This document shows positions 3,620 through 28,621 of a stretch of DNA of 28,621 nt, one piece after another. The notes below the pieces were generated by a model. The model saw nothing but the letters and a program-made list of their open reading frames with translations, searched no databases and was not told the DNA's origin. Within the stretch, counting starts at the first letter, position 1, and each line of letters begins with the position of its first letter. The stretch covers positions 1 through 28,621 of the forward strand of contig CATJWA010000179.1 of NCBI GenBank assembly GCA_949744025.1, in the 5' to 3' direction. The DNA is from an uncultured Eubacteriales bacterium. Its GTDB lineage: Bacteria; Bacillota; Clostridia; Oscillospirales; Oscillospiraceae. A program made the position numbers and the translations under genes.

Positions 3620-5782
3620 TTATATATCCTCCTCATCGTCGTCCTCCATGCCCAAAACGGCGCTGTCGGATTGCTCGCTGAACTCGGACATGCCGAGCTG
3701 CACGTTTTCATCCTCATCCGATCTTTGCGTGAGTCTGGAAGCTTTTTTCTCCTGTTCCGGTGACCCGAGCTTGTATTCAAAAGCGGGTTCCATCGAGGCA
3801 GTAACCGCAGTCACAGGCCGGCGGGATGCCTGCGTCGCCGGTGGTTTTGTATCATGCTTCTGTTCTGACGGATGTGGCCGTTGAGCAGCCTTTGGCTCCG
3901 GCTTTCTTTCCGCGGTGGGCGACTGTTTCTCCCGCTGCTTCCACTCCGGCACATAGTCCGCCACGCGGCAGGGCTTGAGTCCGGCGTAAGCGGGAAACTC
4001 CTCCGGCGTGAGCTTATACAGCAGCGCGGGCTTGTGGCCCTGAAACAATGCGATGCACTTCCGGTAATCCAGTCGCAGGACCTCATCCGGCTGCATCAGA
4101 GCGCGCTGGGTGTTGCTGCGCGTCTGCGAATACGGCCGCGTACTGGTGTAGACAGGGGAGAACAGCGGCATGAGCGGCATCTGGTTATTCGTGACCGCGA
4201 TGGTGACGTTTCCGCACTTCTCCGAGATGTACTTTGCCGAGGTCATGTCGTTGCAGCCCATGTACAATGTTTGGTTGAATGTGCCGAGCTGGTTCTCCCA
4301 CTCCTTGCCCGGATACTTTTCCTGCCACTGGGACAGGCTCTGCACGACAATCTGGCAGCTCATATTGAAGCCGCGGATGCTGTTGAGCGCGTCGGCCATG
4401 CCCTCCATGTAGCCGATGTTGCAGTATTCGTCAAGGCAGAAGTTCACCAGCACAGGGAGCCTCCCTCCGGGGCCGTGCAGTCTCGCGTAGTCGGATAGCT
4501 GCGGGATAGCCAGAGAGAAGAACAGGGAGCTAAGGAAGCGGTAGGCGCTGTCCTGCGCGGAGATTATGACGAAATACGCGCATTTCCTCTTGCCCGGCAG
4601 AGTCAGGTCCACATCGTGATTGCTGGTGATCGCATCCACCAGCGGATTCTGGTAAATCGACAGGCGGTTGCCAAGACCGGTAATTACGCTGCCCCACAGG
4701 TTCTCCTTCGCTTTCAGAAACAGCCCATGATGCCCCTTCGCCGGGTGGTCTGGGGGTAAGGCTGCCAGCTTGCGGTTTATCTCGTTGATGCTCTCATTGG
4801 CTATCATGCGGTAGGCCGCGCCGATGCTTCGCTGCTCTATAGGCAGCAGGCTGCCGTTGGCATCCTTCAGATTGGCGACATAGTGCAGCAGGGCCATGAG
4901 CAGGTTGAGCTCCGCGCGGCTCCAGAAGTCGTCGGCTTCCCTCGGTCCGGAGGTGTTCTGGATAATGGTGTTTGCCACCGTCTGTACCAGCTGGCGCTCC
5001 TGATCCAGCCCGTTCAGGCAGTTCCAACCGTCCGAGTGCTCCATGTCAAGGAAGTTGACCGCCTTGACGTAGTAGCCCTTTTCCGTGAAGTACGAGGACA
5101 TTTTTTCAAAAAGCTCCGACTTGGGATCTGTCACAAAAACTGACTCCCCACGCTCGGCGCAGCCGAGGAGGAACGGGATAATAAAGCCGCGGGTTTTACC
5201 GCTGCCCGGCGCGCCGATGCACAGCAGATTGTTGTTGTCTCCCGCTTTCATTCTGTGAGCGACATACAGAGCGTATTTGTCGGGGTCGTCCTCATGCTTC
5301 TTGCTCTTGCCCAGCATCATCCCCTTGACGTCATTAACGCTTCCCATCTCTAAAAACGTGCGCATCTCCTTTTCCGTCAGAAAGCCGGAGGTGCCGTGCG
5401 TGCCGTCGGGGAGAATATCGAAGCCGCGCTTGTCATGGGTGTACTTGTAGCCCGAAAACCATATGTAGCCCTTCTTCGTAATAAGGCAGATCAGCAGGAC
5501 AATAACCGCCGTTGCCGCCAGACCAAAGGGCGTGAATACGGCAAGCAAATTCTTAAACGGGTTCGCCACCCAGATGCTCGCTGGCTTATCCCCGCCGGCG
5601 CTGAACGTGGACGCTATGCCCAGCCGCAGGGAGTTTATGAACATACCGTAGAAGTACCATCCCGCGATTGCCGCCGGTATGCAGAGCCTGAACTTAGATT
5701 TGTTCCGCTCGTACCAGCTTCCGAGCTTACTATGTACTTTATCCTCCGCCTTTTCTATGAGCCTGGATAAGCGGGGCATCAA
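3620..5782 (-). CDS. virD4: Type IV coupling protein VirD4/TraG-like
   Basis: Two N-terminal TM segments, Walker A GAPGSGKT, VTDPKSEL, Walker B LDEYCN, QIVVQSLSQ; acidic tail. Start is TTG 5782 or ATG 5779 after RBS GGAGGAG. Confidence 0.93.
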   Translation of the reverse strand: MMPRLSRLIEKAEDKVHSKLGSWYERNKSKFRLCIPAAIAGWYFYGMFINSLRLGIASTFSAGGDKPASIWVANPFKNLLAVFTPFGLAATAVIVLLICLITKKGYIWFSGYKYTHDKRGFDILPDGTHGTSGFLTEKEMRTFLEMGSVNDVKGMMLGKSKKHEDDPDKYALYVAHRMKAGDNNNLLCIGAPGSGKTRGFIIPFLLGCAERGESVFVTDPKSELFEKMSSYFTEKGYYVKAVNFLDMEHSDGWNCLNGLDQERQLVQTVANTIIQNTSGPREADDFWSRAELNLLMALLHYVANLKDANGSLLPIEQRSIGAAYRMIANESINEINRKLAALPPDHPAKGHHGLFLKAKENLWGSVITGLGNRLSIYQNPLVDAITSNHDVDLTLPGKRKCAYFVIISAQDSAYRFLSSLFFSLAIPQLSDYARLHGPGGRLPVLVNFCLDEYCNIGYMEGMADALNSIRGFNMSCQIVVQSLSQWQEKYPGKEWENQLGTFNQTLYMGCNDMTSAKYISEKCGNVTIAVTNNQMPLMPLFSPVYTSTRPYSQTRSNTQRALMQPDEVLRLDYRKCIALFQGHKPALLYKLTPEEFPAYAGLKPCRVADYVPEWKQREKQSPTAERKPEPKAAQRPHPSEQKHDTKPPATQASRRPVTAVTASMEPAFEYKLGSPEQEKKASRLTQRSDEDENVQLGMSEFSEQSDSAVLGMEDDDEEDI

Positions 5783-7121: not shown

Positions 7122-7787
7122 TTAAAATGCCGCAAAGCCGCCGCCATTCGAGCCAATACAGGAAAAGAAATCCGCGGCGTCAGCCCTGTCCAGCAGCGTA
7201 ATATGGCAGGTGTTCTCGCCGCTGCGTGTGGACAGCAGGGCAATGCCCAAAGTGTACTGGTCATCGTCGGGAATAAGCCTGCCCTTGACGGCGTTTGAGA
7301 TCGCCTTCCAGCCCTTGTTGTCCTGGTCGTATACCCCGCGCTTCGGGACATCCGAGTGCTCGTCAATCACCATGAGCGCCTGCCTGTAATATGGAAGCAC
7401 GCTCCCGCCGCTCTCATAATCGTCCAGCAGCCGTATGATCGTGTCAGAAAACCAGACCGGCGCAAGATACCGGCAGCTCGGCAGCAGAGTGTTCACACAT
7501 ATATGAAGCCAGCCATAATTTAGGCTTTCCACATATCCCGTAACCTCTCTTTTGGGCAGCACCGGCCTTCGGCTTGTCCCCGCATTGGGCAGGCGGTTCC
7601 TTTCACATAGCGTTCTCAGCGTCATTGTGGCACGCTCAAATTCCTCCATCGTTTGCTCAAGTACCCGCTGGATCTTCTCCGTGTTTTCCTGCCCACTGTT
7701 TGCCAGCGCGACAAGTCCGCCCGTCTTGGAAAAGGCATCGCCAATGAGCTTCTGCATCTGCGCCGCGCATGTCTTCAAATCACTCAT
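7122..7787 (-). CDS. RusA-like (Holliday junction resolvase fold) protein
   Basis: 221 aa; DQDNKGWKAISNAVKGRLIPDDD resembles the RusA DxDNxxKxxxD...DD motif; overlaps the virB4 stop. Confidence 0.55.
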   Translation of the reverse strand: MSDLKTCAAQMQKLIGDAFSKTGGLVALANSGQENTEKIQRVLEQTMEEFERATMTLRTLCERNRLPNAGTSRRPVLPKREVTGYVESLNYGWLHICVNTLLPSCRYLAPVWFSDTIIRLLDDYESGGSVLPYYRQALMVIDEHSDVPKRGVYDQDNKGWKAISNAVKGRLIPDDDQYTLGIALLSTRSGENTCHITLLDRADAADFFSCIGSNGGGFAAF

Positions 7788-15439: not shown

Positions 15440-18400
15440 TTAAAAACCTGTTTTCGGGAGCACCGTTGTGTTTGTCGGGTTCAGGTTTCTTACAATCGTC
15501 ACCCAGCCGGCGTTGCCCGTCTCCCATGTGCCGCCGTACCTGCCTCCGGCGTCGGCCCTGTTTGTCACCTGGTAGCCGTTGGCCGCCGTGGGACTGACCT
15601 GCACGGTAAGTGTAGGCTGCGTCGTGGACTTGAAGCCCGCGGGGACGGTACCGAAGTCAAAGTAGATATCCGTTATGACCTCACCGGACGAGAGCGTCAG
15701 AGCGTTAAGCCTGAAGGAGTAGCTGTTCGTGGTCAGCAGATTGCTCGCCAGCACCCTGTAATCGTTGTAGTTTGTCCTGTACAGTATGCGGTAGTTCAGG
15801 CGCTGGTTATATGTGCCTGTTGTAAGAGCCGTGGCGCTGGTGATGTCGTAGGGGAGCTTGTCGTGCCAGAAGAAGCTCTCAAGATCCACATTGGACGTGT
15901 TGGCAATCTTAAAGCGGTAGGTCATCTGGTCCCCCGCCAGCACTTCCTTCACTCCGGTTTTCGTTATGGTCACGCCCAGAGACGAGGGCCTGTCATAATC
16001 CGCGACCTTTATTATCTGCCCTGCGTACTCCAGCGTCACATCAAAGGTCTGGCCTGAAAGCTGCCAGTAGGCGGGGGCGGAAACCTCCCGTATCAGGTAG
16101 CGCCCCAGCGGCAGCGTGACAGCCGCGACGCCCCGCGCGTCTGTGACGATCTGGCCGACGACGGCGCCGCTGCGCTCCCTGACCACCTCGTACACCGCGC
16201 CCTGAAGCGTGCTGCCCTTAGCCTGCCCCGTGACGGGGTTATCCTCCGCGGCATACTTGATGATCTGTACCTGCGCCATTATAGGCGTGTTCTGCCATTC
16301 CACCGTGGTATTTCTTCCTGCCCTGACCGTGACCGTCTTGTACTGGGTATCGAGGATATAGCCCTCGGCCGCCTCAAGCTCGCGCAGCAGATATTTTCCC
16401 GCCGTAAGCTCTTTGGAGGTATAGGCATAGCCGTACTGGTCCGTGACAATCTGCTCAACGGGGTTCTTGTCCGTGTCATAGAGCATGAAGGTCACGCCGT
16501 AAATCCCCGCGCCGCTGGCGCTGTCGGTCTTATGAATTGTTATTCCGCTGAAGGGCTTGTTGGTTATGGTCTTGGACGTTGTTTTGCCGTCCTTGACTTC
16601 AAAATACACGGGCGTCGGGTCGCATTTATATCCCTCTGCCGCGGCGATTTCAATCGCGTAGTAGCTGCCGCTCTCCAGAGCATGGAAGGCGCGGCCATTC
16701 TTATCCGTCGTGACTGTTGCAACCAGAGCGTCGTCCATCCTGCGTATCTCGAAGGTGGTGTTGGGTATGCGCTTCGAGCGGTCCGCCTCGCTGACCTTTA
16801 TGAGCTCCACGCCGCCGGTGGGCGTATTGTAGAAGGTCAGTACCTGCCCGTCGTCGGCATTAACCGTGACGGTCTGCGTTTTTGTACCTTCGTCGATGGT
16901 GTAGCCCTCAATGGTCTGCTCCTCCGTCACCACCAGCGTGCCTGTTATACCGCTTATGACGATCTCTCCGTTCTTGTCCGTATAATACAGGCCGTTGCTG
17001 GATACTTTGCCGCCGGTGTTATCCACAAATCTACCGTCGGCGTAGGTGATCTTGAAGGTGACGCCGGTGAGAGGCTGATTTGTCACGCTGTCCAACTTGC
17101 GGATAGTGAGGGAGCCTGTCCTGCGATTCCAGAAGGTCAGGTGCTGCACCTCACCGCTTTTTATCTGAATGCTCTGGGGCGTACCGTCAAACACAAAGCC
17201 GTCCACCGTGGATATCTCACGCGCGGTCACGTCCGTGCCCGGCTCAAGGCCGGAGATAACGATCTCGCCGGAGGCGTCCGTATAATAAATACCCGCATCG
17301 GGCCCCACGACGGCGCCGCTGCCGTCCGTGACCTTGAAGCACACGCCGGCAAGGGGCTCATAGTCGCTGCCGCTTATGTACTTGCGGATAATCAGAGTTG
17401 TGGTAGGTTCATTGTCGAAGGTCAGGCTGTTGGCGGCGCCGCTGCGCACAACTATGGTCTTGGCCTCACTGTCCCTGAGGTAGCCTGCCGGCGCTTTTTC
17501 CTCCGTTACGATCAGCGTCGCATTTGGCTTAAGGCCGGAAACGGTCACGGTGCCGTCGCTGCCGGTGGTATAGCGCCCGTTGTTCGGCCCCACGACCGTG
17601 CCGTCGCTGTACTTCACATGGAACTCAGCCCCGCACAGGGGCTCCTTTGTGGCAGCGTCCCGCTTCAGGAGCGTGAGCGTACAGAGCGGGTCGTCGGCCA
17701 CTGTTACCGTCTGAGTATCCGCGCCGCGTACGACGATTGCATGGGACGAGGCGGCAAGGCGGTAATTCTCCGGTGCTTTTGTTTCGGTAATTATGTATGT
17801 AGCGGGCGTCAGATTGGTCAGATAAATCTGACCGTTGGCGTCGGTCACATACAGGCCACTGCTGCTGGTAAGGCCCTCGTTGCCGTCGGCCAGCGTACCG
17901 TCCGAGGTCGTGATACGAAACTCCGCGCCGGCCAGAGGCTCCTTCGTTATGCTGTCGATCTTCTGTACCACAAGCGAGCCTTTCGGGGTATTTGTAATAT
18001 TCAGGGTCTGTGTATCGTTGGTATTGACAACGATGCTGTGAGCGGTGGTGTCCAGGATATAGCCCGAAATTGTTGCTGTTTCCGTCACGATATAAGTGTC
18101 CGGCTTGAGTCCGGTCAGTATGATCTGACCGTTGGCGTCGGTCACGTACTCCCCGTTGGAGGATATGCTCCCGCCCTTGTTCGCCACATACTCACCCGAG
18201 GAGGTTTTCACCGTGAAGGTCACGCCCTTCAGGGGCGCCCCTGTTACGGAGTCTCGCTTCTGGATTATAAGGCTGCCGTGGGGCGCGTTGCGAAACTCAA
18301 GGCTTACGGTGTGTCCCGCGCGCACCTTGACTGTCTGCGGCGTATCGTCCAGCACATAGCCGTCCCTGGCGCGTGTCTCCTTAACTATTAGCGTTGTGGA

Positions 18401-21400
18401 CGGGTCAAGGCTGTCTATGAGGACAGTGCCCGCGGAGTCGGTGACGAATTTGCCGTTGGCGTTTCCGATCAGCGTACCCTCGCTGTCGGTTACCAGAAAC
18501 TCAACGTCAGACAGGGGCTCATGGGTAACGGCGTCTATTTTCTTTATGAGGACGCTGCCCTTGGGGGTGTTGCCAAAATAGAGCTCCACTACGTCTGTCT
18601 GCTTTCCGCTGATGTAAGCGGTCTGCGGCGCGGAGTCTATCACATGGCCGCTGTCGCTGGACAGCTCCTCCACGATATATGCGCCCTCGGAAAGTCCGGT
18701 CACGGTAAAGCTGCCGTTGGGTCCGGTCGTGTAGGTGCCTATTACCGTGCCTCCGGTGCCGCTGGTGTCCGTGAGCTTCTTCACCTGAAAGCGCGCTCCT
18801 GTTACCGCCGTGCCGTCCACGCTGTCATACTTGTACACCACAAGGGCGCTCAGGGGTATATTCTCGAAAGTCAGGACGCGGTCCTCGCCGCCCTTTATAT
18901 ACACCTCCTGTGTGGCCTCTTTTATGGAGTAGCCCTCCACCGCTTCCAGCTCGGTTATGGTGTACCAGCCGTCGCTCAGGTCAGTAAGCCTGAACTGGCC
19001 GTTGCCGTCGGAGAGAAAATTACCGAGGTTCCTCATGGCTCCGCTTTCGGTGTTATTACTGCGGTAGGTCACCTGGAACTTTGCTCCCTTTAGCGGTTCG
19101 CCGCTGACGGAGGAAACCTTACTTACCGTCAGCGAGGGCTTCGCGTGGTTTGTAAAGATTACGGTACCCAGCTTGTTGGCCGTGAGGGTAATAAGCTGCG
19201 AGGACTGCCGCGCCGGAAGATAGCCCACGGGCGGTGTCTGCTCAATGACCTCGTAAACGCCGGGGGCCATGTTTTTCAGAATGATCTCGCCCTTGCCGTT
19301 TGTCTCCTCGGCGGTCAGGGTGGCCCCGTCCGCTTTCTTCACCTTGAATACCGCGCCGGGCAGATACTCTCCGGTGTCCGCGTCCTTCTTGACAATTCTC
19401 AGGTCGGGCTTTACGTCGTTGCTGACCACAAGCTGCGAGGTCTGGCCCGCGAACAGCTCGACATGGTACTCGGTTTTGTCCAGCACATAGTTGTCCGGCG
19501 CTGCCATCTCCTGAACCGAGTAAACGCCCTGCTCTAAGTCGCTGATGTTTATTTCTCCGTTTATATCCGTCACGCGGTCAAGATAATGTGTGCCGTCCTC
19601 AATTCCGGCGATGCGGAATGTGGCCCCCGCAATGCGCTCTCCGCTCAGGCTGTCTATCTTCACCAGCTTGAAGGACGGTTTCAGCGTATTGGTAAAGACG
19701 AACTCGGCGTTGTCGCCGCCCTCTATGCGAATAATCCGCTGCGCGTCGTCTATGAGGTAATGCTCCGGCGCGGACAATTCAACCACGGTATAGCTGCCGG
19801 GCTCCATCCCCGTCAGGTCTATCTCACCGTTTGCGTCGGTGGTGTATTCCTGGCTGAAGGTCCCGCCAACCTGAGTGACGCGAAACTTCGCGTTGGCCAG
19901 CGGCTGCATGGTCTGAGCGTCCACCTTGCGGAGATGTATGCCGGGCTTCAAGTAGTTGAAGAAAATAAGGTTATACATTTCCGTCGCGCCCTCGACGAGC
20001 TCGATGGACTGGGGCGTGGAGTTTATAACATGGGAATCCGGCGCGGCGATTTCCTGCGCGGTATAAGTGCCGGGCTCAAGGTCATAGAGATAGATCTCGC
20101 CGCCGCGGTCGGTGGTGTACTCGCCGATCAGCTCGGTGTCCTTGTACACCGCAAAGGTCACGTCCGCCAGCGGCTTCATGGTCTGGGCGTCGTATTTAAC
20201 TATCCGCAGCGCGGGCATGAGCTTGTTTGTAATTCTGAGAACAGGGTCCTCGCCCGTGGCGGGGTCAAGGGCGTCGATGTGCATGCCGTGGCGCGACGTG
20301 TCCAGCACGTATCCGTAGGGCGCGACACGCTCCACCGCCTCGTAATAGCCCTCGCTGACGCCGCTGACGGTGGCGATGCCCTGCTCGTTGGTACGGACCG
20401 AGTCGATCAATTCGCCGTCCTTGTAGATGTCGAAGTAGGCGCCGGACAGGGGGATATTGGTATTCGCATCCACCTTCAGGATTTTGAAGCCCGGCTTCCG
20501 GACGTTGGTGAAGTACAGGTCTACATCAGCCTTACCGTCCCAGTTGACGGTCTTTACGGCATTGTCCTTTTCGTAGCCCTCGGGAGCGGACAGCTCGGAA
20601 ACGCGGTAGGAGCCGTAGGGCAGCCTGTCGGGAGTAAACTCAATAAGCCCGTCGGCTCCCGTGCGTCCCTCGGTTATGAAGTCACCGTCTACCTGCTCGA
20701 AGCGGAAGAGCGCGCCCTCTAAAGAATAGCCGCTCTGTTTGTCCTGCTTGTGGATACGTAAGGTATTCTCGGAGGAGTCGCTCACGGTGACATATACCGT
20801 CTGTCCGGCTTTCGCGGTGATGGTGACGGGCTCCGTGAGCCGGTAGCCCTCCGGCGCCAGGGTCTCGGTAATTGTATAGCCCTGATCCGTGGGAAGTCCG
20901 GTCCAGGTGATGGAGCCGTCGCTGCCGGTTGTGCCGCTGTCGTGGTAGCCGCCGCTGCCATCTATGTCGAACTCGGCATCGGCCAGGGCGGCGCCGTTTT
21001 CATCGGTTTTCAGCAGGCGTATGCTGCCCGTCTCCGGAACATCCGTGCCGCTCTCGCCCCATTTCAGGTAGCCCGCCGCGCTGCTTGTGGCGCTGTTGGG
21101 GTCGGCGATGATGAAGTCCTGCTCGTAGGCGTGACTGTTTTCCACCTTGTAGAAGGTGCAGGAGGCAACGGCCGCCGCGGCCTGCACGGTCACGCTTCCC
21201 GCCGTTTCCGCTTCGGCGGCGGCCGCGGGGACGCAGATCTTGAAGATGCCGGAATACTCTGAGCCGCCGGCGGTCAGGGTAACAGCGCCGCCGCTCAGGA
21301 TACGGTTGGAGGCGTCAGCCAATACCGTTCCCGCGGGTGCTCCGGTGGTCTGGAGCTTTACGCTGCCGCTGTCGGGCATGGCCGTGCAGGTCAGGACAAA

Positions 21401-22117
21401 CTCGCGGGTGTAATATTTCTTTCCTCCGATGGTTTCGGTTTTGATCCCGCCGTAGTTTTCCATTGCAGCTCTGGAAAGTGAGGTGTCAGTTCCCAAATCG
21501 ACAGTATCGTTGTCGGAGTCCGCGTTTGCGCGAATACGCATTCCTACGTTTGCGGCGCCGCCGGAGCTGTTGAGTATGGCCAGCACAGCGTTATACACGC
21601 GGAGCTTGGCCGCATCCGTGGGGCGGAACACAGTCTCCGAGCCGGCGGTGTAGGAGGTGCCATCCACGGCCACCTGGCCCAGCGTCGCCCAGACCGCAAC
21701 CTGCGTCGCGTAGCCGTACTCGTCCTGAGTTATGCCGTTTGTCTCAGGATGCAGTGAAGTGAAAGTCGCAAGAGGCACCAGCGGGTAGCCGCTTGAGAAC
21801 GCCGCCGTCATTTTCGGGTTCCCGGTATAGGGCGTGGTGTTCACGGCGATATAGCCGTTAGGATAACCGCTGCCGTGGTTAGTGCAGTATGCCGGACCGT
21901 TAATCTTGCCGTCCGCGGTGACGTAACTCCATATACGGCCGGAAAGGGGCCAGGTGTATTCTCCGCTTTTTACGTCAAGATAGGTGTGCGGTATTTCGCT
22001 GCGTATCATCACGTTGACCCCGTTGGGATAGCTGTCTATGGAGTCCGCGAATACCTGCGGAGTCAGGGACAGCACCATCACCATGACGAGGAGCAATGCT
22101 GTAAGTCGTTTTTTCAT
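15440..22117 (-). CDS. Large surface adhesin: thioester (TQxA) domain + many SpaA/CnaB-type Ig-like repeats + terminal LPKTG
   Basis: Signal peptide; AYC78TNHG, ATQVAVW and EQ333DFII; over a dozen L-x-I-x-K-x-D...E-x-x-AP-x-GY...F-x-N repeats; DUF11-like final domain; ends VLPKTGF-stop. Confidence 0.9.
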   Translation of the reverse strand: MKKRLTALLLVMVMVLSLTPQVFADSIDSYPNGVNVMIRSEIPHTYLDVKSGEYTWPLSGRIWSYVTADGKINGPAYCTNHGSGYPNGYIAVNTTPYTGNPKMTAAFSSGYPLVPLATFTSLHPETNGITQDEYGYATQVAVWATLGQVAVDGTSYTAGSETVFRPTDAAKLRVYNAVLAILNSSGGAANVGMRIRANADSDNDTVDLGTDTSLSRAAMENYGGIKTETIGGKKYYTREFVLTCTAMPDSGSVKLQTTGAPAGTVLADASNRILSGGAVTLTAGGSEYSGIFKICVPAAAAEAETAGSVTVQAAAAVASCTFYKVENSHAYEQDFIIADPNSATSSAAGYLKWGESGTDVPETGSIRLLKTDENGAALADAEFDIDGSGGYHDSGTTGSDGSITWTGLPTDQGYTITETLAPEGYRLTEPVTITAKAGQTVYVTVSDSSENTLRIHKQDKQSGYSLEGALFRFEQVDGDFITEGRTGADGLIEFTPDRLPYGSYRVSELSAPEGYEKDNAVKTVNWDGKADVDLYFTNVRKPGFKILKVDANTNIPLSGAYFDIYKDGELIDSVRTNEQGIATVSGVSEGYYEAVERVAPYGYVLDTSRHGMHIDALDPATGEDPVLRITNKLMPALRIVKYDAQTMKPLADVTFAVYKDTELIGEYTTDRGGEIYLYDLEPGTYTAQEIAAPDSHVINSTPQSIELVEGATEMYNLIFFNYLKPGIHLRKVDAQTMQPLANAKFRVTQVGGTFSQEYTTDANGEIDLTGMEPGSYTVVELSAPEHYLIDDAQRIIRIEGGDNAEFVFTNTLKPSFKLVKIDSLSGERIAGATFRIAGIEDGTHYLDRVTDINGEINISDLEQGVYSVQEMAAPDNYVLDKTEYHVELFAGQTSQLVVSNDVKPDLRIVKKDADTGEYLPGAVFKVKKADGATLTAEETNGKGEIILKNMAPGVYEVIEQTPPVGYLPARQSSQLITLTANKLGTVIFTNHAKPSLTVSKVSSVSGEPLKGAKFQVTYRSNNTESGAMRNLGNFLSDGNGQFRLTDLSDGWYTITELEAVEGYSIKEATQEVYIKGGEDRVLTFENIPLSALVVYKYDSVDGTAVTGARFQVKKLTDTSGTGGTVIGTYTTGPNGSFTVTGLSEGAYIVEELSSDSGHVIDSAPQTAYISGKQTDVVELYFGNTPKGSVLIKKIDAVTHEPLSDVEFLVTDSEGTLIGNANGKFVTDSAGTVLIDSLDPSTTLIVKETRARDGYVLDDTPQTVKVRAGHTVSLEFRNAPHGSLIIQKRDSVTGAPLKGVTFTVKTSSGEYVANKGGSISSNGEYVTDANGQIILTGLKPDTYIVTETATISGYILDTTAHSIVVNTNDTQTLNITNTPKGSLVVQKIDSITKEPLAGAEFRITTSDGTLADGNEGLTSSSGLYVTDANGQIYLTNLTPATYIITETKAPENYRLAASSHAIVVRGADTQTVTVADDPLCTLTLLKRDAATKEPLCGAEFHVKYSDGTVVGPNNGRYTTGSDGTVTVSGLKPNATLIVTEEKAPAGYLRDSEAKTIVVRSGAANSLTFDNEPTTTLIIRKYISGSDYEPLAGVCFKVTDGSGAVVGPDAGIYYTDASGEIVISGLEPGTDVTAREISTVDGFVFDGTPQSIQIKSGEVQHLTFWNRRTGSLTIRKLDSVTNQPLTGVTFKITYADGRFVDNTGGKVSSNGLYYTDKNGEIVISGITGTLVVTEEQTIEGYTIDEGTKTQTVTVNADDGQVLTFYNTPTGGVELIKVSEADRSKRIPNTTFEIRRMDDALVATVTTDKNGRAFHALESGSYYAIEIAAAEGYKCDPTPVYFEVKDGKTTSKTITNKPFSGITIHKTDSASGAGIYGVTFMLYDTDKNPVEQIVTDQYGYAYTSKELTAGKYLLRELEAAEGYILDTQYKTVTVRAGRNTTVEWQNTPIMAQVQIIKYAAEDNPVTGQAKGSTLQGAVYEVVRERSGAVVGQIVTDARGVAAVTLPLGRYLIREVSAPAYWQLSGQTFDVTLEYAGQIIKVADYDRPSSLGVTITKTGVKEVLAGDQMTYRFKIANTSNVDLESFFWHDKLPYDITSATALTTGTYNQRLNYRILYRTNYNDYRVLASNLLTTNSYSFRLNALTLSSGEVITDIYFDFGTVPAGFKSTTQPTLTVQVSPTAANGYQVTNRADAGGRYGGTWETGNAGWVTIVRNLNPTNTTVLPKTGF

Positions 22118-22212: not shown

Positions 22213-23214
22213 TTACTTTGTGGAGCCGGGTACCAGAAGCTCCATCAGGAATTTGTTTCCCTCCGGATTATTTGGCTGCTTGTGAGGTGTATCGCTGAAC
22301 AGCAGGTAATCATGGCCGTAGACCTGGTCGTTCAAACTGACGTCTGTGTAGCTCCACTCACCGTCCACATAGATCATGTTCCAGCTGTGAGACTCTCCAG
22401 AAACTACAATACAGGGGATACCGACCCGAGCACACAGATAGTTCATCAGTCCGGCATAACTGGTACAGTTTCCCTCTACCGGCTCATGGGCTTCGGTGAT
22501 CTCATTCGGACCCACGACTATCTTGGGATTGTAAATCATGTGCTCGCAGATCCACTCGTTTAGGCGCGTTACTTTCTCCCTGTCGGTGCTCATTTGACCG
22601 ACCTCGCGGATCAGCTCCGCCGTGGCCATGTCTGCTGTATTGCGATCTACTTTGATAGAATAGATTTCATACATATCACCTCCACGGTCATTTACTGAAA
22701 GAGTTGTACCATTCGCAAGATTCACCAGTAAATGCTCAAACTTCTGACGGTTGCTATAGCTTGAAAAGTAGACCGGAGCCCGTTTGGAGAAATCCCCAGC
22801 ACGGGCTGCTTCCAGCACCTCATAGGCGGCGTTATACGCCTCGCGTGAATAGAATCCGGTGAATATCTCCGGATTTGCCGCCGCGCTGTGATCCGTTGCG
22901 GATAGAGTCTCATTTGTGGGCTCCGGTGCCGCTGTAATTATGTCGGGGGCCTGCCCCGTGTAGGACGCGCCGCTTTCGATATGCACCGCGCCGTCCCAGT
23001 ACACATTAAAGTTTGCCGCCTGTCCGATGTCACGCAGCTTCACATAGTTGGCCCCGTCGATCAGGTAGGCTTCCAGCTTCACGCGCTGCCCGTCCACATA
23101 GACAACCTGCGCGCTGCGCTCGGCGAGGATACCGGACGCCGCGTAAGCTATGCCGCCGCCGAAAAACACCGCGCCTGCCAGCACGCCTGTTATAAACGAA
23201 ATAGTCCTTTTCAT
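22213..23214 (-). CDS. Secreted transglutaminase-like cysteine protease-fold protein with N-terminal copper-amine-oxidase-N/stalk-like domain
   Basis: Signal peptide; LEAYLIDGANYVKLRDIG stalk-like motif; GNCTSYA...HSWNMI...YTDVS Cys-His-Asp triad. Confidence 0.82.
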   Translation of the reverse strand: MKRTISFITGVLAGAVFFGGGIAYAASGILAERSAQVVYVDGQRVKLEAYLIDGANYVKLRDIGQAANFNVYWDGAVHIESGASYTGQAPDIITAAPEPTNETLSATDHSAAANPEIFTGFYSREAYNAAYEVLEAARAGDFSKRAPVYFSSYSNRQKFEHLLVNLANGTTLSVNDRGGDMYEIYSIKVDRNTADMATAELIREVGQMSTDREKVTRLNEWICEHMIYNPKIVVGPNEITEAHEPVEGNCTSYAGLMNYLCARVGIPCIVVSGESHSWNMIYVDGEWSYTDVSLNDQVYGHDYLLFSDTPHKQPNNPEGNKFLMELLVPGSTK

Positions 23215-23352: not shown

Positions 23353-24192
23353 TTAAATTTTTTCTGTCGCCTGCACACAGACGCGGCTTTCCGGATGCCC
23401 GGCGAGGCAGGTCGTAATGGTGAGCATGTTGTCCGCCGAGGGCTGCAAACGGCTCCAGTCGGTGTTGGAAATTACGCCCACATAGGACACGGCGTATGTG
23501 CGCGTGCCGTACACCGTCTCGTAGGTGATCGTGTCGCCGATGCTCAGGTCCTTGATGGCCCCGATCACATATCTCGCGCCGCGGTTATGCCCGCACAGAC
23601 ACACGTTTCCGTCCCAGCCGGAGGTAGATGAGTAATGGGCCATGCCCTTTGCCATGCTCTCGTTCGTCTCTCCCTCCCAGACCTTCATGCAGATATCCAG
23701 AGAGGGTATGCTTACCGCGCCTATACTTCCGTCGCCGCGCACCATACCGGATGCACTGGTATACGCGGTCTGCTTGTACACCGCCTGCGCGCCGAGTGCG
23801 GCTCCCGCGGCGGCTCCGGACGCCTCGTAGATGACCGTGCCCCCTGTGCTTGAAACGCCGTAGCTCACAGCCGCGTTATTGCCGCCGTAGGTCAGCTTAT
23901 TCCCATAAAGCGGGGCTTTTTCCATCGAGCCGCTCAGTGTATTGCTCTCCGTTCCGTAGGGCAGGTCCGGAATCTTGAAGTCCGAGACATTGCTACCGCC
24001 GTAATTGTACGCGGCGCCGTAGACATCCTCGTAGCTCTGGGAGGGATAGAACTCCGCCGCGGCAGCGCCGGAAAAGCTGTATTCATCCGCGCTGGCTCCC
24101 ATGCTCAGCGCGGCGCACAGGCAGGCCGCGGCTATTGAGCTGGTAAAAATGTTTTTAAGTCTGGTTTTCGTATCTGTCGTCCTCCGTTTCAT
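23353..24192 (-). CDS. Sortase (class D-like)
   Basis: LCGHNRG, TITTC and ESRVCV give the His/Cys/Arg triad; N-terminal signal peptide-like segment; exact start uncertain. Confidence 0.88.
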   Translation of the reverse strand: MKRRTTDTKTRLKNIFTSSIAAACLCAALSMGASADEYSFSGAAAAEFYPSQSYEDVYGAAYNYGGSNVSDFKIPDLPYGTESNTLSGSMEKAPLYGNKLTYGGNNAAVSYGVSSTGGTVIYEASGAAAGAALGAQAVYKQTAYTSASGMVRGDGSIGAVSIPSLDICMKVWEGETNESMAKGMAHYSSTSGWDGNVCLCGHNRGARYVIGAIKDLSIGDTITYETVYGTRTYAVSYVGVISNTDWSRLQPSADNMLTITTCLAGHPESRVCVQATEKI

Positions 24193-25126
24193 AATAATTT
24201 GCTTCGTGCGCTCCGCGCTTCCTTATAACGATGATGAGAATGATGACAAACGCCAGCACCAGCAGAAGCAGGGCGCCTCCGGCAATCCAGAGCCAGTTAA
24301 AGCTGGACATGGAATGCTCACTGCCGTTTTCTGTATCCGTGGCCGGTGTAACAGTTGGCTCCTGCTCGGGTATTGGCTCCGGCTCCGTTGCCGCGGCCGG
24401 CGTTCCGGTGTAGGTGAGAGTATAGGTGACGCTCTCGATTCCCGCGCTTACCACCTCGCCCACATACTCCGCCGTGCTGACGTAAGCCGTGGGCGCGCTG
24501 TACCAGCCCGTGCCCGAATAGGTCGCTACGGCCACATACGAGGCCGGCACCAGCACATCGTCTACCAGGTCGGTGCTCTGCACCTGCCAGTCCACGCTTT
24601 GAAGCTGGACCGTTATCCCGTTCTTGACGGTGGTGGCAGGCACAAAGGACATGTCGTTGCTGTTCAGGTTGTTGATATGCCTGACCTCCGTGACCGCGAA
24701 GGAACGTGTCTCATGGCCCGCGGCCTCCGTCGTGATCGTGGTATGGTCCAGGTTCAGGACTCCGCGCCATTCCCCGTCGTCGTACACTACGGACGGCTCC
24801 AGAGCCGCCAGTATGGAGTCCAGGTCATCCTCCTCCGTTTCCACGCTGACGCTTTCCGTGTGCGTTTTCGTTTCTGAATAGCTATTTTCCTCCTTGACGA
24901 TCCCGGCATAAGTGTATGTATAGCCGTTGTAGTCAAAGTCCGGCTCAATAAGGTCCTCCGCGTTTGTCTCGGGGGACACTGTATATACCTTGATGTACTC
25001 CTGAACGCCGTCCAGATTGCGCACGACGGTTTCCACAGGCACCTCCAACGCGAATGTGTTAAGCGTGCAGCAGAGTGTCAGGGCCAGAGCTGCGCAGCCG
25101 GTCAAAATGTGTTTCGTCCCTCTCAT
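24155..25126 (-). CDS. Membrane-anchored surface protein (signal peptide, Pro/Glu/Thr linker, C-terminal TM + basic tail)
   Basis: Start moved to ATG 25126 (MRGTKHILTGCAALALTLCCTLNTFA-LE); 323 aa; WLWIAGGALLLLVLAFVIILIIVIRKRG anchor; no LPxTG before the TM. Confidence 0.8.
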   Translation of the reverse strand: MRGTKHILTGCAALALTLCCTLNTFALEVPVETVVRNLDGVQEYIKVYTVSPETNAEDLIEPDFDYNGYTYTYAGIVKEENSYSETKTHTESVSVETEEDDLDSILAALEPSVVYDDGEWRGVLNLDHTTITTEAAGHETRSFAVTEVRHINNLNSNDMSFVPATTVKNGITVQLQSVDWQVQSTDLVDDVLVPASYVAVATYSGTGWYSAPTAYVSTAEYVGEVVSAGIESVTYTLTYTGTPAAATEPEPIPEQEPTVTPATDTENGSEHSMSSFNWLWIAGGALLLLVLAFVIILIIVIRKRGAHEANYYETEDDRYENQT

Positions 25127-27842: not shown

Positions 27843-28621
27843 TTAGCCAAGCTCAAGCACCTCCCTCGCCAGGCTGAGATAGGATTCTGCGGCCGGATTT
27901 TTCGGGGCGTACTCAAGTATGCTTTTCCCGACCGCCGGGCATTCCGCGATTTTTATGGTCTGCTCAATGGGTCGCTCAAAAACATGGATCTCGTCGCCAT
28001 AAATCTCACTCACACCGGAGCGCACACTCTGGCAGAGCTGTGGCCGTGACTGATACATTGTCAGCAGGATACCCGCAATCTTCAGCCGCGGATTGAAACG
28101 GGCCTGCACTGATTTCACAAGCTTCAGCACGTCGGGAATGCCCTCGCTGGCGAGAAAGTGGGCTTGTACCGGTATTATGCAGTAGTCTGATGCAGCCAAG
28201 GCGTTGACTGTCAGCAGCTCATGCTTCAGCCCGCAGTCTATGATGATATAATCATAGCTGTTGCGCAAGGGCTCCACCACACTGTCCATCATCTTTTCAC
28301 AGGGCTTGTCCGCATCGCCCACTGCGTTATACTGCGACAGCTGCATGACCTGCAAACGCGCTGCGACATCGGAAAGGCGCTTGTTGGCAGGGATCAAATC
28401 AATACCGCTGGCTGTATGTATAACGGTGCGAGGAAGATGCAGCTCCAGATCCTCTGGGGTGTCAACGGCGGCAAGCAGGAGTTTTGCAAGGGTGTTTTTA
28501 AGCTCGGTCGGCGTATAGCCCAGCGATGCTGTTAAGTTACCCTGCACGTCGTTATCTATAAGAATGGCTCGTTTGCCGGAAGCCGTGAGCGCGGCCCCAA
28601 GATTCAGCGCGGTTGAGCTCT
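27843..28621 (-). CDS. parA: ParA/Soj-family ATPase, 5' end outside window
   Basis: Frame is open to the window edge (…SSTALNLGAALTASGKRAILIDNDVQGNLT); also DLIPAN, YDYIIIDCG and IIPVQAHF. Confidence 0.92.
   Translation of the reverse strand, partial: SSTALNLGAALTASGKRAILIDNDVQGNLTASLGYTPTELKNTLAKLLLAAVDTPEDLELHLPRTVIHTASGIDLIPANKRLSDVAARLQVMQLSQYNAVGDADKPCEKMMDSVVEPLRNSYDYIIIDCGLKHELLTVNALAASDYCIIPVQAHFLASEGIPDVLKLVKSVQARFNPRLKIAGILLTMYQSRPQLCQSVRSGVSEIYGDEIHVFERPIEQTIKIAECPAVGKSILEYAPKNPAAESYLSLAREVLELG

Follow-up and report, generated by a model that had tools for sequence, protein, structure and literature searches.

A conserved LPxTG ending without a membrane anchor in an adhesin family of conjugative elements from Clostridia

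The stretch of DNA analysed here, called the window below, is the entire 28.6-kb contig CATJWA010000179.1 (28,621 nucleotides; assembly GCA_949744025.1) of an uncultured Eubacteriales bacterium of the family Oscillospiraceae, and it belongs to a conjugative plasmid or an integrative and conjugative element (ICE). At the head of its transfer genes lies a surface module, with the gene order membrane partner protein, sortase, transglutaminase-like protein, adhesin, VirB2-like small protein and VirB6-like protein. The subject of this study is the adhesin, which ends at LPKTGF, together with the sortase and the partner encoded upstream of it. The absence of a tail after the LPxTG motif is a trait of the whole adhesin family and marks what, from sequence comparison, is a genuine conserved non-canonical sortase module.

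The adhesin and its C-terminal ending

The adhesin gene and the features that bear on its ending are as follows.

15440-22117, minus strand: adhesin gene, 2225 aa, with signal peptide, thioester domain, 18 SpaA/CnaB-type repeats, conserved C-terminal domain and LPKTGF followed by the stop codon
21647-21895, minus strand: thioester domain (TED), residues 75-157 (PF08341, 28.2 bits against a cut-off of 22)
15443-16000, minus strand: conserved C-terminal domain, residues 2040-2225, the domain end lying about 10 residues before LPKTG
15440-15460, minus strand: candidate minimal sorting signal, LPKTG (residues 2220-2224) plus Phe and TAA
15458-15460, 15455-15457, 15452-15454, 15449-15451, 15446-15448, 15443-15445 and 15440-15442, minus strand: codons of this signal, in the order L, P, K, T, G, F and TAA
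15399-15424, minus strand: hairpin of 26 nt between the adhesin stop codon and the next ribosome-binding site (RBS), with a perfect 10-bp stem, CAGGCTGGCT...AGCCAGCCTG, and no U-run after it

The adhesin begins with a Sec signal peptide, MKKRLTALLLVMVMVLSLTPQVFA, followed by Asp. The TED is its presumed covalent adhesive head. The stalk matches PF17802 (SpaA) in 18 stretches in Pfam (E 2.6e-280), and the last CnaB region matches BaTIE (6FWV, E 3.5e-15). An N-terminal TED followed by a stalk of CnaB/SpaA type is the architecture of the class II TED adhesins known as TIE proteins. The conserved C-terminal domain beyond the repeats appears, from the alignments, to be the hallmark that accompanies the tail-less ending; of 301 genomes of the order, 17 contain it.

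A canonical sorting signal consists of LPXTG, a hydrophobic segment and a basic tail, and the last two keep the precursor at the membrane until a sortase anchored there acts on it. Only the first of these parts is present here. The adhesin ends ...WVTIVRNLNPTNTTVLPKTGF, the final residues being NTTVLPKTGF; a single Phe follows the motif, and both the hydrophobic segment and the basic tail are absent. A tail hidden behind read-through or a frameshift was considered and rejected: the in-frame continuation gives F-Y-I-T-Y-Q-A-G-S-C-E-P-A, 13 non-hydrophobic residues, and then TGA. The next hydrophobic stretch past the stop codon is the signal peptide of a separate 118-aa gene with its own GGAGG RBS. 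Translation and read-through thus agree with the initial annotation, which had the adhesin stop one residue after LPKTG with no helix or basic tail. The hairpin in between may set the ratio of adhesin expression to that of the type IV secretion system (T4SS) genes.

The same ending was found throughout the family. A search with the last 296 residues of the adhesin gave closest homologues of which all 120 listed end in [LH]P[KRQ]TG[YF] and a stop codon; they are 65-81% identical over that region and vary widely in repeat number, with total lengths of 1374-3750 aa. A second search ran over about 15 billion proteins clustered at 50% identity, each cluster being represented once. Here the number of clusters matched by the adhesin C-terminal region was 3480 at E<=1e-3 and 481 at E<=1e-30, and LPxTG with exactly one residue after it closes the protein in 121 of the best 150 cluster representatives. 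Representatives that match through the CnaB repeats but not through the C-terminal domain carry a normal transmembrane segment and basic tail. Taking all collected homologues together, 241 of 268 end in LPxTG plus one residue. The final residue of these 241 is Tyr in 217 (90%), Phe in 10, Trp in 5 and another residue in 9, Phe and Trp making up 6%, and the x of LPxTG is Lys or Arg in 96%. Adhesin genes cut from related genomes, among them one on the closed Oscillibacter hominis chromosome CP060490, also end in LP[KRQ]TG[YF] without exception (19 of 19). Judged by these counts, the recurrence of the tail-less ending is far beyond chance.

The initial annotation had asked whether homologues likewise end in LPxTG, one residue and a stop, and had allowed that a full transmembrane tail in them would reduce the present copy to a truncation; the first holds for all or most members of each of the three homologue sets, and for the family the second is not the case. 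The genome is a fragmented metagenome-assembled genome (MAG; 2.04 Mb, 370 contigs, 71% complete), in which a copy truncated by mutation, misassembly or sequencing error, the true protein having a transmembrane tail, might be expected. We rejected a truncated or misassembled copy because the ending is shared by 241 homologues from many assemblies, including the closed chromosome, and because the hairpin, the RBS and the next gene stand directly downstream; the chance that the ending is an artefact is negligible.

Relatives with a canonical signal do exist at a greater distance. A homologue on a Clostridium perfringens plasmid, with 32% identity in the C-terminal domain, ends in LPHTG-GLSNIYLLLAGTVLVGASIMLKKRN, that is, with a transmembrane segment and a KKR tail.

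L058:3-3650 (plasmid pSXP-169_2, NZ_CP143494.1, at about 44.2-47.85 kb of the record): large open reading frame (ORF) encoding the C. perfringens adhesin

This ORF has no entry in the PLSDB gene table. Since there are canonical relatives, the tail was presumably lost, and LPKTGF-COOH looks to be derived from a canonical signal by loss of the hydrophobic segment and the basic tail.

The host MAG has ordinary sortase machinery of its own.

C184, about 10.5-15.1 kb: canonical pilus-type locus with two substrates carrying LPxTG, transmembrane segment and basic tail, a class-C-like sortase with a C-terminal transmembrane helix, and a second sortase
C236:12896-13240: third host sortase, N-terminally anchored

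The two substrates on contig C184 have LPETG and LPQTG, each with a transmembrane segment and an Arg/Lys tail, and genome-wide in the MAG the tail-less ending occurs only in the adhesin. A general habit of the organism to use tail-less signals was rejected on these grounds; since the substrates of the host are canonical, the tail-less signal is specific to the adhesin of the mobile element. With hundreds of relatives ending in the same way, the membrane-anchor part of the textbook sorting signal appears dispensable in this adhesin family, and annotation pipelines that demand a transmembrane tail would miss such proteins as sortase substrates.

The linked sortase and the membrane partner

Two further genes of the module are needed for the argument.

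23353-24192, minus strand: sortase, 279 aa (PF04203, E 3.7e-18, 65.9 bits against a cut-off of 26.6)
24088-24192, minus strand: sortase residues 1-35, signal-peptide-like
23908-24087, minus strand: sortase residues 36-95, Tyr-rich module; these are followed by a variable linker (residues 96-145) and the catalytic domain (residues 146-279)
24155-25126, minus strand: partner protein, 323 aa, with signal peptide, beta-rich ectodomain, Pro/Thr/Glu linker, transmembrane helix and a short RKR-acidic tail, and no LPxTG
24989-24991, minus strand: codon of partner residue K46

The sortase gene lies 1.2 kb upstream of the adhesin on the same strand, and at least 1075 homologues of 260-290 aa were found. 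The protein also matches TIGR01076 (51.2 bits against a cut-off of 39.35), and it scores far below the cut-off of all the NCBIfam class models (A to F), with 56.2 against 140 for NF058671 (SrtD-type), 53.6 against 165 for class D, 48.3 against 160 for class E and 42.7 against 160 for class C. Assignment to a class failed, the PDB sequence neighbours being a mixture of classes A, C and D; no class B sortase appears in the PDB listings, whether by sequence or by fold. In the AlphaFold2 model the catalytic domain (residues 145-279) has pLDDT values above 90, and Foldseek returned 137 PDB matches at E<=1e-3, the 50 listed being all sortases with a root-mean-square deviation (rmsd) of about 1.7 A. 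Model and matches agree in an eight-stranded beta-barrel of the sortase type. The best fold neighbours are class C sortases (E 2e-12, rmsd 1.7 A over 136 residues), with a marginal lead. An alignment of 68 family members shows no variation at the catalytic residues H202 (in GHNRG), C262 (in TTC) and R270.

The N-terminus of the sortase has a basic n-region and about 15 hydrophobic residues and reaches ...GASA, an AxA site, immediately before DEY. Every homologue has a small-x-small site at this place, followed by a conserved acidic-acidic-Tyr or Ala-Asp-Tyr. Beyond residue 60 no further hydrophobic helix was found in 121 homologues, the maximum Kyte-Doolittle value over 19 aa being 1.55 against a threshold of 1.6. 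This N-terminus is built like the signal peptides of the secreted proteins encoded with it and differs from the anchors of the three ordinary host sortases, one of which has a C-terminal transmembrane helix with KKKRKK and two of which have long, uncleavable-looking N-terminal anchors. The linked sortase looks secreted, not membrane-anchored, with putative cleavage of its signal peptide.

The initial annotation had read the sortase as a cleavable signal peptide followed by a Tyr/Gly/Ser-rich linker. The secreted-looking N-terminus speaks for the first part; the second needs revision, as about 55 Tyr-rich residues after the putative cleavage site are well conserved (…YNYGG…PDLPYG…MEK…) and form a module of their own, and only then does a variable Gly/Ser/Thr/Pro linker begin. 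Residues 36-145 consist of 16% Ala, 14% Gly, 12% Tyr and 12% Ser, and residues 36-140 have pLDDT values of 38-58. Such a module, conserved yet predicted to be disordered, is characteristic of motifs that become ordered upon binding to another protein.

A candidate for this binding partner is encoded by the gene that overlaps the start of the sortase gene by 38 nt. As the initial annotation had described it, the product is a surface protein with a transmembrane helix and a basic tail but no LPxTG, and we find it to be a conserved companion of the sortase in related loci and genomes. By its gene arrangement the pair is translationally coupled. All 833 homologues are annotated as hypothetical and none falls into a Pfam family. 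The ectodomain of about 220-250 aa is modelled by AlphaFold2 with unusually long beta-strands and a pLDDT of about 97 for residues 30-245, a disordered Pro/Thr/Glu linker following. Foldseek found no match for it in the PDB (E>=9e-3, TM-score<=0.12), the best hit of a wide VIA search (Z 6.5) was under the noise level of 7-8, the AlphaFold database clusters and the ESM Atlas held only unnamed relatives, and a PDB sequence search returned nothing. By these searches the ectodomain is an orphan fold.

A locus search with a single sortase sequence gave only 3 related loci, and a genome search was used instead. Among about 16 related loci with enough flanking sequence, 13 have the partner and sortase homologues side by side near the adhesin. 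The two genes overlap by 1-4 nt in these relatives against 38 nt in the window. Some loci run partner-sortase-(transglutaminase)-adhesin and others adhesin-partner-sortase, with the partner gene directly after the adhesin stop codon in loci L035, L044 and L045. Co-occurrence was assessed in a sample of 300 genomes of the same order as the host: 16 contain the adhesin C-terminal domain, 18 the partner and 14 both. By chance the two would overlap in about 1 genome, a comparison in which carriage on one element inflates the observed 14.

A minimal sorting signal and its possible acceptors

Very probably LPxTG-aromatic is a working minimal sorting signal that is read by the element's own sortase. 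In sortase ligation chemistry the Gly of the motif needs to be in amide linkage, and the lone residue after Gly keeps it so. The SrtA of Staphylococcus aureus is reported to incorporate exogenous, anchor-less LPETG-amide peptides into the wall (PMC4723074). Together with the AbpA-SrtB system of oral streptococci this points to the feasibility of a signal without an anchor.

AbpA of S. parasanguinis and S. gordonii (Liang et al. 2016) ends in LPKTS-AVK and has no hydrophobic domain; SrtB, encoded next to it, cuts behind the Thr and anchors the protein in the wall, some of the protein being released and some appearing in ladders (PMC4974636). It is the closest experimental precedent and the one experimental short-tail system known. 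Both systems have an LPxT-small motif with at most three residues after it and no hydrophobic domain (LPKTG plus F here, LPKTS plus AVK there), and a cognate sortase encoded near the substrate. They differ in that the tail is one aromatic residue here instead of three residues and the canonical Gly is kept. In domain description, AbpA is a 20-kDa coiled-coil protein that also has small alpha/beta domains, whereas the present adhesin is a TED/CnaB stalk of 2225 aa. SrtB is of class B, while the N-terminus of the window's sortase resembles a signal peptide and is followed by a conserved module predicted to be disordered. The present system is further set apart by a coupled gene for a membrane partner and by its setting on a conjugative element of gut Clostridia.

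The favoured reading as a whole, namely a functional minimal signal, the element's sortase, the partner as a tether in trans and a wall acceptor, has in our estimate about an even chance of being right. The adhesin would be exported by Sec, and its C-terminal domain and the Tyr-rich N-terminal module of the sortase would dock on the ectodomain of the partner, which would supply in trans the membrane tether lacking in both enzyme and substrate. The sortase would then attack the Thr-Gly bond and release Gly-Phe (Gly-Tyr in most relatives), and the Thr carboxyl of the adhesin would be transferred to an amine of the envelope, most likely the cross-bridge of the donor peptidoglycan or lipid II. The stalk of about 2000 CnaB residues would finally present the thioester head for covalent capture of recipients during mating. 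Donor peptidoglycan as the acceptor, and the partner as a tether or scaffold that replaces the missing anchors, are proposed with less confidence than the minimal signal itself. The translational coupling, the disordered sortase module and the conserved adhesin C-terminal domain fit a three-way complex, none of them proving it.

A bolder form of this proposal is a split system, in which neither sortase nor substrate is embedded in the membrane; the orphan-fold single-pass protein would bring the two together outside the membrane and might even serve as covalent acceptor. We offer this tentatively and regard it as rather less than probable. If it were true, anchoring of the adhesin would be independent of the host lipid II route and portable between hosts, and a sortase pathway would be organised around a third, previously unknown component.

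Protein-protein ligation, the foremost idea of the initial annotation, is a related alternative, which we consider unlikely: the sortase would join the adhesin Thr to an amine of the partner, for example Lys46, and the adhesin would be held by a membrane protein and not by peptidoglycan. The pilin-like protein and the recipient wall, which that annotation also named, are like the partner conjectural as targets of trans-ligation. The coupling of the partner gene to that of the sortase, and its position directly after the adhesin stop codon in three loci, would suit this, as would K46 itself, which lies in a K-x-Y motif of the first beta-hairpin and is the sole near-universal Lys of the partner (Lys in 97% of 77 homologues). 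It is, however, Arg in two sequences (3%), the Lys of an 'IPK' motif is missing from the window's own subgroup, and the homologue alignment contains no invariant Lys. The mature N-terminus of the partner varies in sequence and length, and there is no pilin motif. Without an invariant Lys, and with a variable mature N-terminus, the partner looks, from the alignment, less like an indispensable covalent acceptor and more like a scaffold. The marginal preference of the catalytic domain for the pilin-polymerising class C sortases would also suit ligation to a protein, but the lead is small (E 1e-12 against 1e-10 to 1e-9 for classes A, D and E).

The same class C neighbours bear on polymerisation, in which the sortase would link adhesins to each other or to the downstream VirB2-like protein in a short pilus-like fibre. 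Ladders formed by AbpA-SrtB in vitro and in vivo (PMC4974636) give this a precedent, and related loci keep a pilin-like gene immediately behind that of the adhesin. Still, no YPK pilin motif and no conserved Lys that could act as acceptor turned up in the adhesin, a stalk of 2225 aa already has the dimensions of a fibre, and the VirB2-like protein is an integral one with two transmembrane helices and without an evident exposed acceptor. We think this improbable, more so than ligation to the partner.

Several observations weigh against the favoured reading, in which the adhesin is cleaved by the element's sortase and joined to the wall. Cleavage of the adhesin, the group that accepts it and the place of the sortase in the cell are deduced from sequence, and a sortase with an uncleaved signal would be an ordinary N-anchored sortase. 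The co-occurrence of adhesin and partner partly reflects a shared mobile element. Four genomes have the partner-sortase pair with no adhesin C-terminal domain detected, and in two of the four the contig breaks off at the place expected for the adhesin gene. Neither a sortase nor a partner gene is present within about 15 kb of two short family members (402 and 705 aa). In the O. hominis ICE of CP060490, the sortase copy (L001:7068-7796) ends ...STDWSCRQPPTTESH and a stop, without the TLxTC Cys strand and the Arg strand; it is apparently frameshifted or broken and stands beside an intact adhesin ending in LPKTGY.

The broken O. hominis copy and the members without a nearby sortase would suit a motif that is unused, the adhesin being held non-covalently through its C-terminal domain. 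LPxTG-Tyr would then be an epitope or a relic, and the sortase would have another substrate or act as a protease only. There is a parallel in TIEpLS20 (p34) of the B. subtilis plasmid pLS20, which lacks LPXTG; pLS20 has no sortase gene and the host sortases are dispensable (PMC8092201). Strict conservation of L, P, T and G across hundreds of 50%-identity clusters, with an aromatic residue next to them and the stop exactly one residue on, argues instead that selection maintains a site for a sortase. No variation is seen in the sortase triad either, and a motif scan of the whole window found no other credible LPxTG protein and hence no other evident substrate there. We judge an unused motif to be quite improbable, slightly more so than polymerisation.

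Other known adhesins can be compared with the present one. PrgB of pCF10 and the BaTIE and SaTIE proteins share with it LPxTG, an N-terminal Sec signal and a role as conjugation or surface adhesins, the latter two also the TED and CnaB architecture; unlike them, the present family lacks the hydrophobic segment and the charged tail, and its sortase lacks a classical anchor. Like TIEpLS20 (Gago-Cordoba et al. 2021), it is a class II TED adhesin with CnaB domains among Gram-positive conjugative transfer genes, but LPxTG and a dedicated sortase are conserved here. TIEpLS20 is needed for efficient mating in liquid (PMC8092201). The likeness of the sortase to class C lies in its fold neighbours. Class C sortases have a cleavable N-terminal signal peptide; unlike them, the present enzyme has no C-terminal transmembrane helix or recognisable lid, and a transmembrane helix is instead provided by a separate, co-translated protein.

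We found no paper in the literature on this adhesin, sortase and partner family, nor any that mentions LPKTGY, LPKTGF, LPRTGY or LPQTGY in this sense, and the 2025 review of T4SS nomenclature lists Gram-positive mating adhesins with canonical LPxTG anchoring only. New here are the one-residue aromatic tail, an unclassified and apparently secreted sortase, a membrane partner of orphan fold, and the wide distribution of these on conjugative elements of Clostridia. With this system an open question, namely what keeps substrate and enzyme in place in a sortase pathway, becomes testable. The system is also relevant to the attachment of donor to recipient by conjugative elements of the abundant gut Clostridia (Oscillospiraceae and relatives). 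We know of no mating adhesin that has been studied from this group, in which genetics is scarce. A sortase that accepts a one-residue leaving group, and perhaps works free of the membrane, could serve as a ligation tool.

The conjugative element around the module

The remaining features of the element were identified mainly by a Pfam scan of the ORFs.

3620-5782: VirD4-type coupling protein (T4SS-DNA_transf, E 1.4e-59)
7784-9763: VirB4-like ATPase (TraG P-loop match)
10450-10761: PrgI/VirB3-like gene (weak PrgI match)
12527-14977: TrbL/VirB6-like gene (weak TrbL_4 match)
15014-15370, minus strand: protein of 118 aa with the topology of a VirB2/TrbC pilin, directly downstream of the adhesin
22213-23214, minus strand: secreted protein with a transglutaminase core of the Cys-His-Asp type (PF01841, E 3.6e-12), between sortase and adhesin

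A coupling protein, a VirB4-type ATPase, a VirB6/TrbL-like and a PrgI/VirB3-like gene, with replication and partition genes (ParA, ParB and RepA_N), make up the gene set of a Gram-positive conjugative T4SS; Phd/ParE and MazE-type genes are also present. No relaxase was identified among the ORFs of the window scanned with Pfam. The genes at 3-1328 and 27843-28619, both on the minus strand, run off the ends of the contig and do not join each other, so that the element in the window is not complete.

The translation of the 118-aa VirB2-like protein has a signal peptide and two transmembrane helices. A gene of its type occupies the same position in related loci L001, L034, L039 and L041-L043, and precedes the VirB6-like gene in L039 and L041-L043.

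More than 10 related loci have a homologue of the transglutaminase-like protein at the corresponding place. This protein might act as a hydrolase of the wall, form cross-links or cleave other proteins. In its O. hominis homologue the N-terminal region appears SLH-like by eye.

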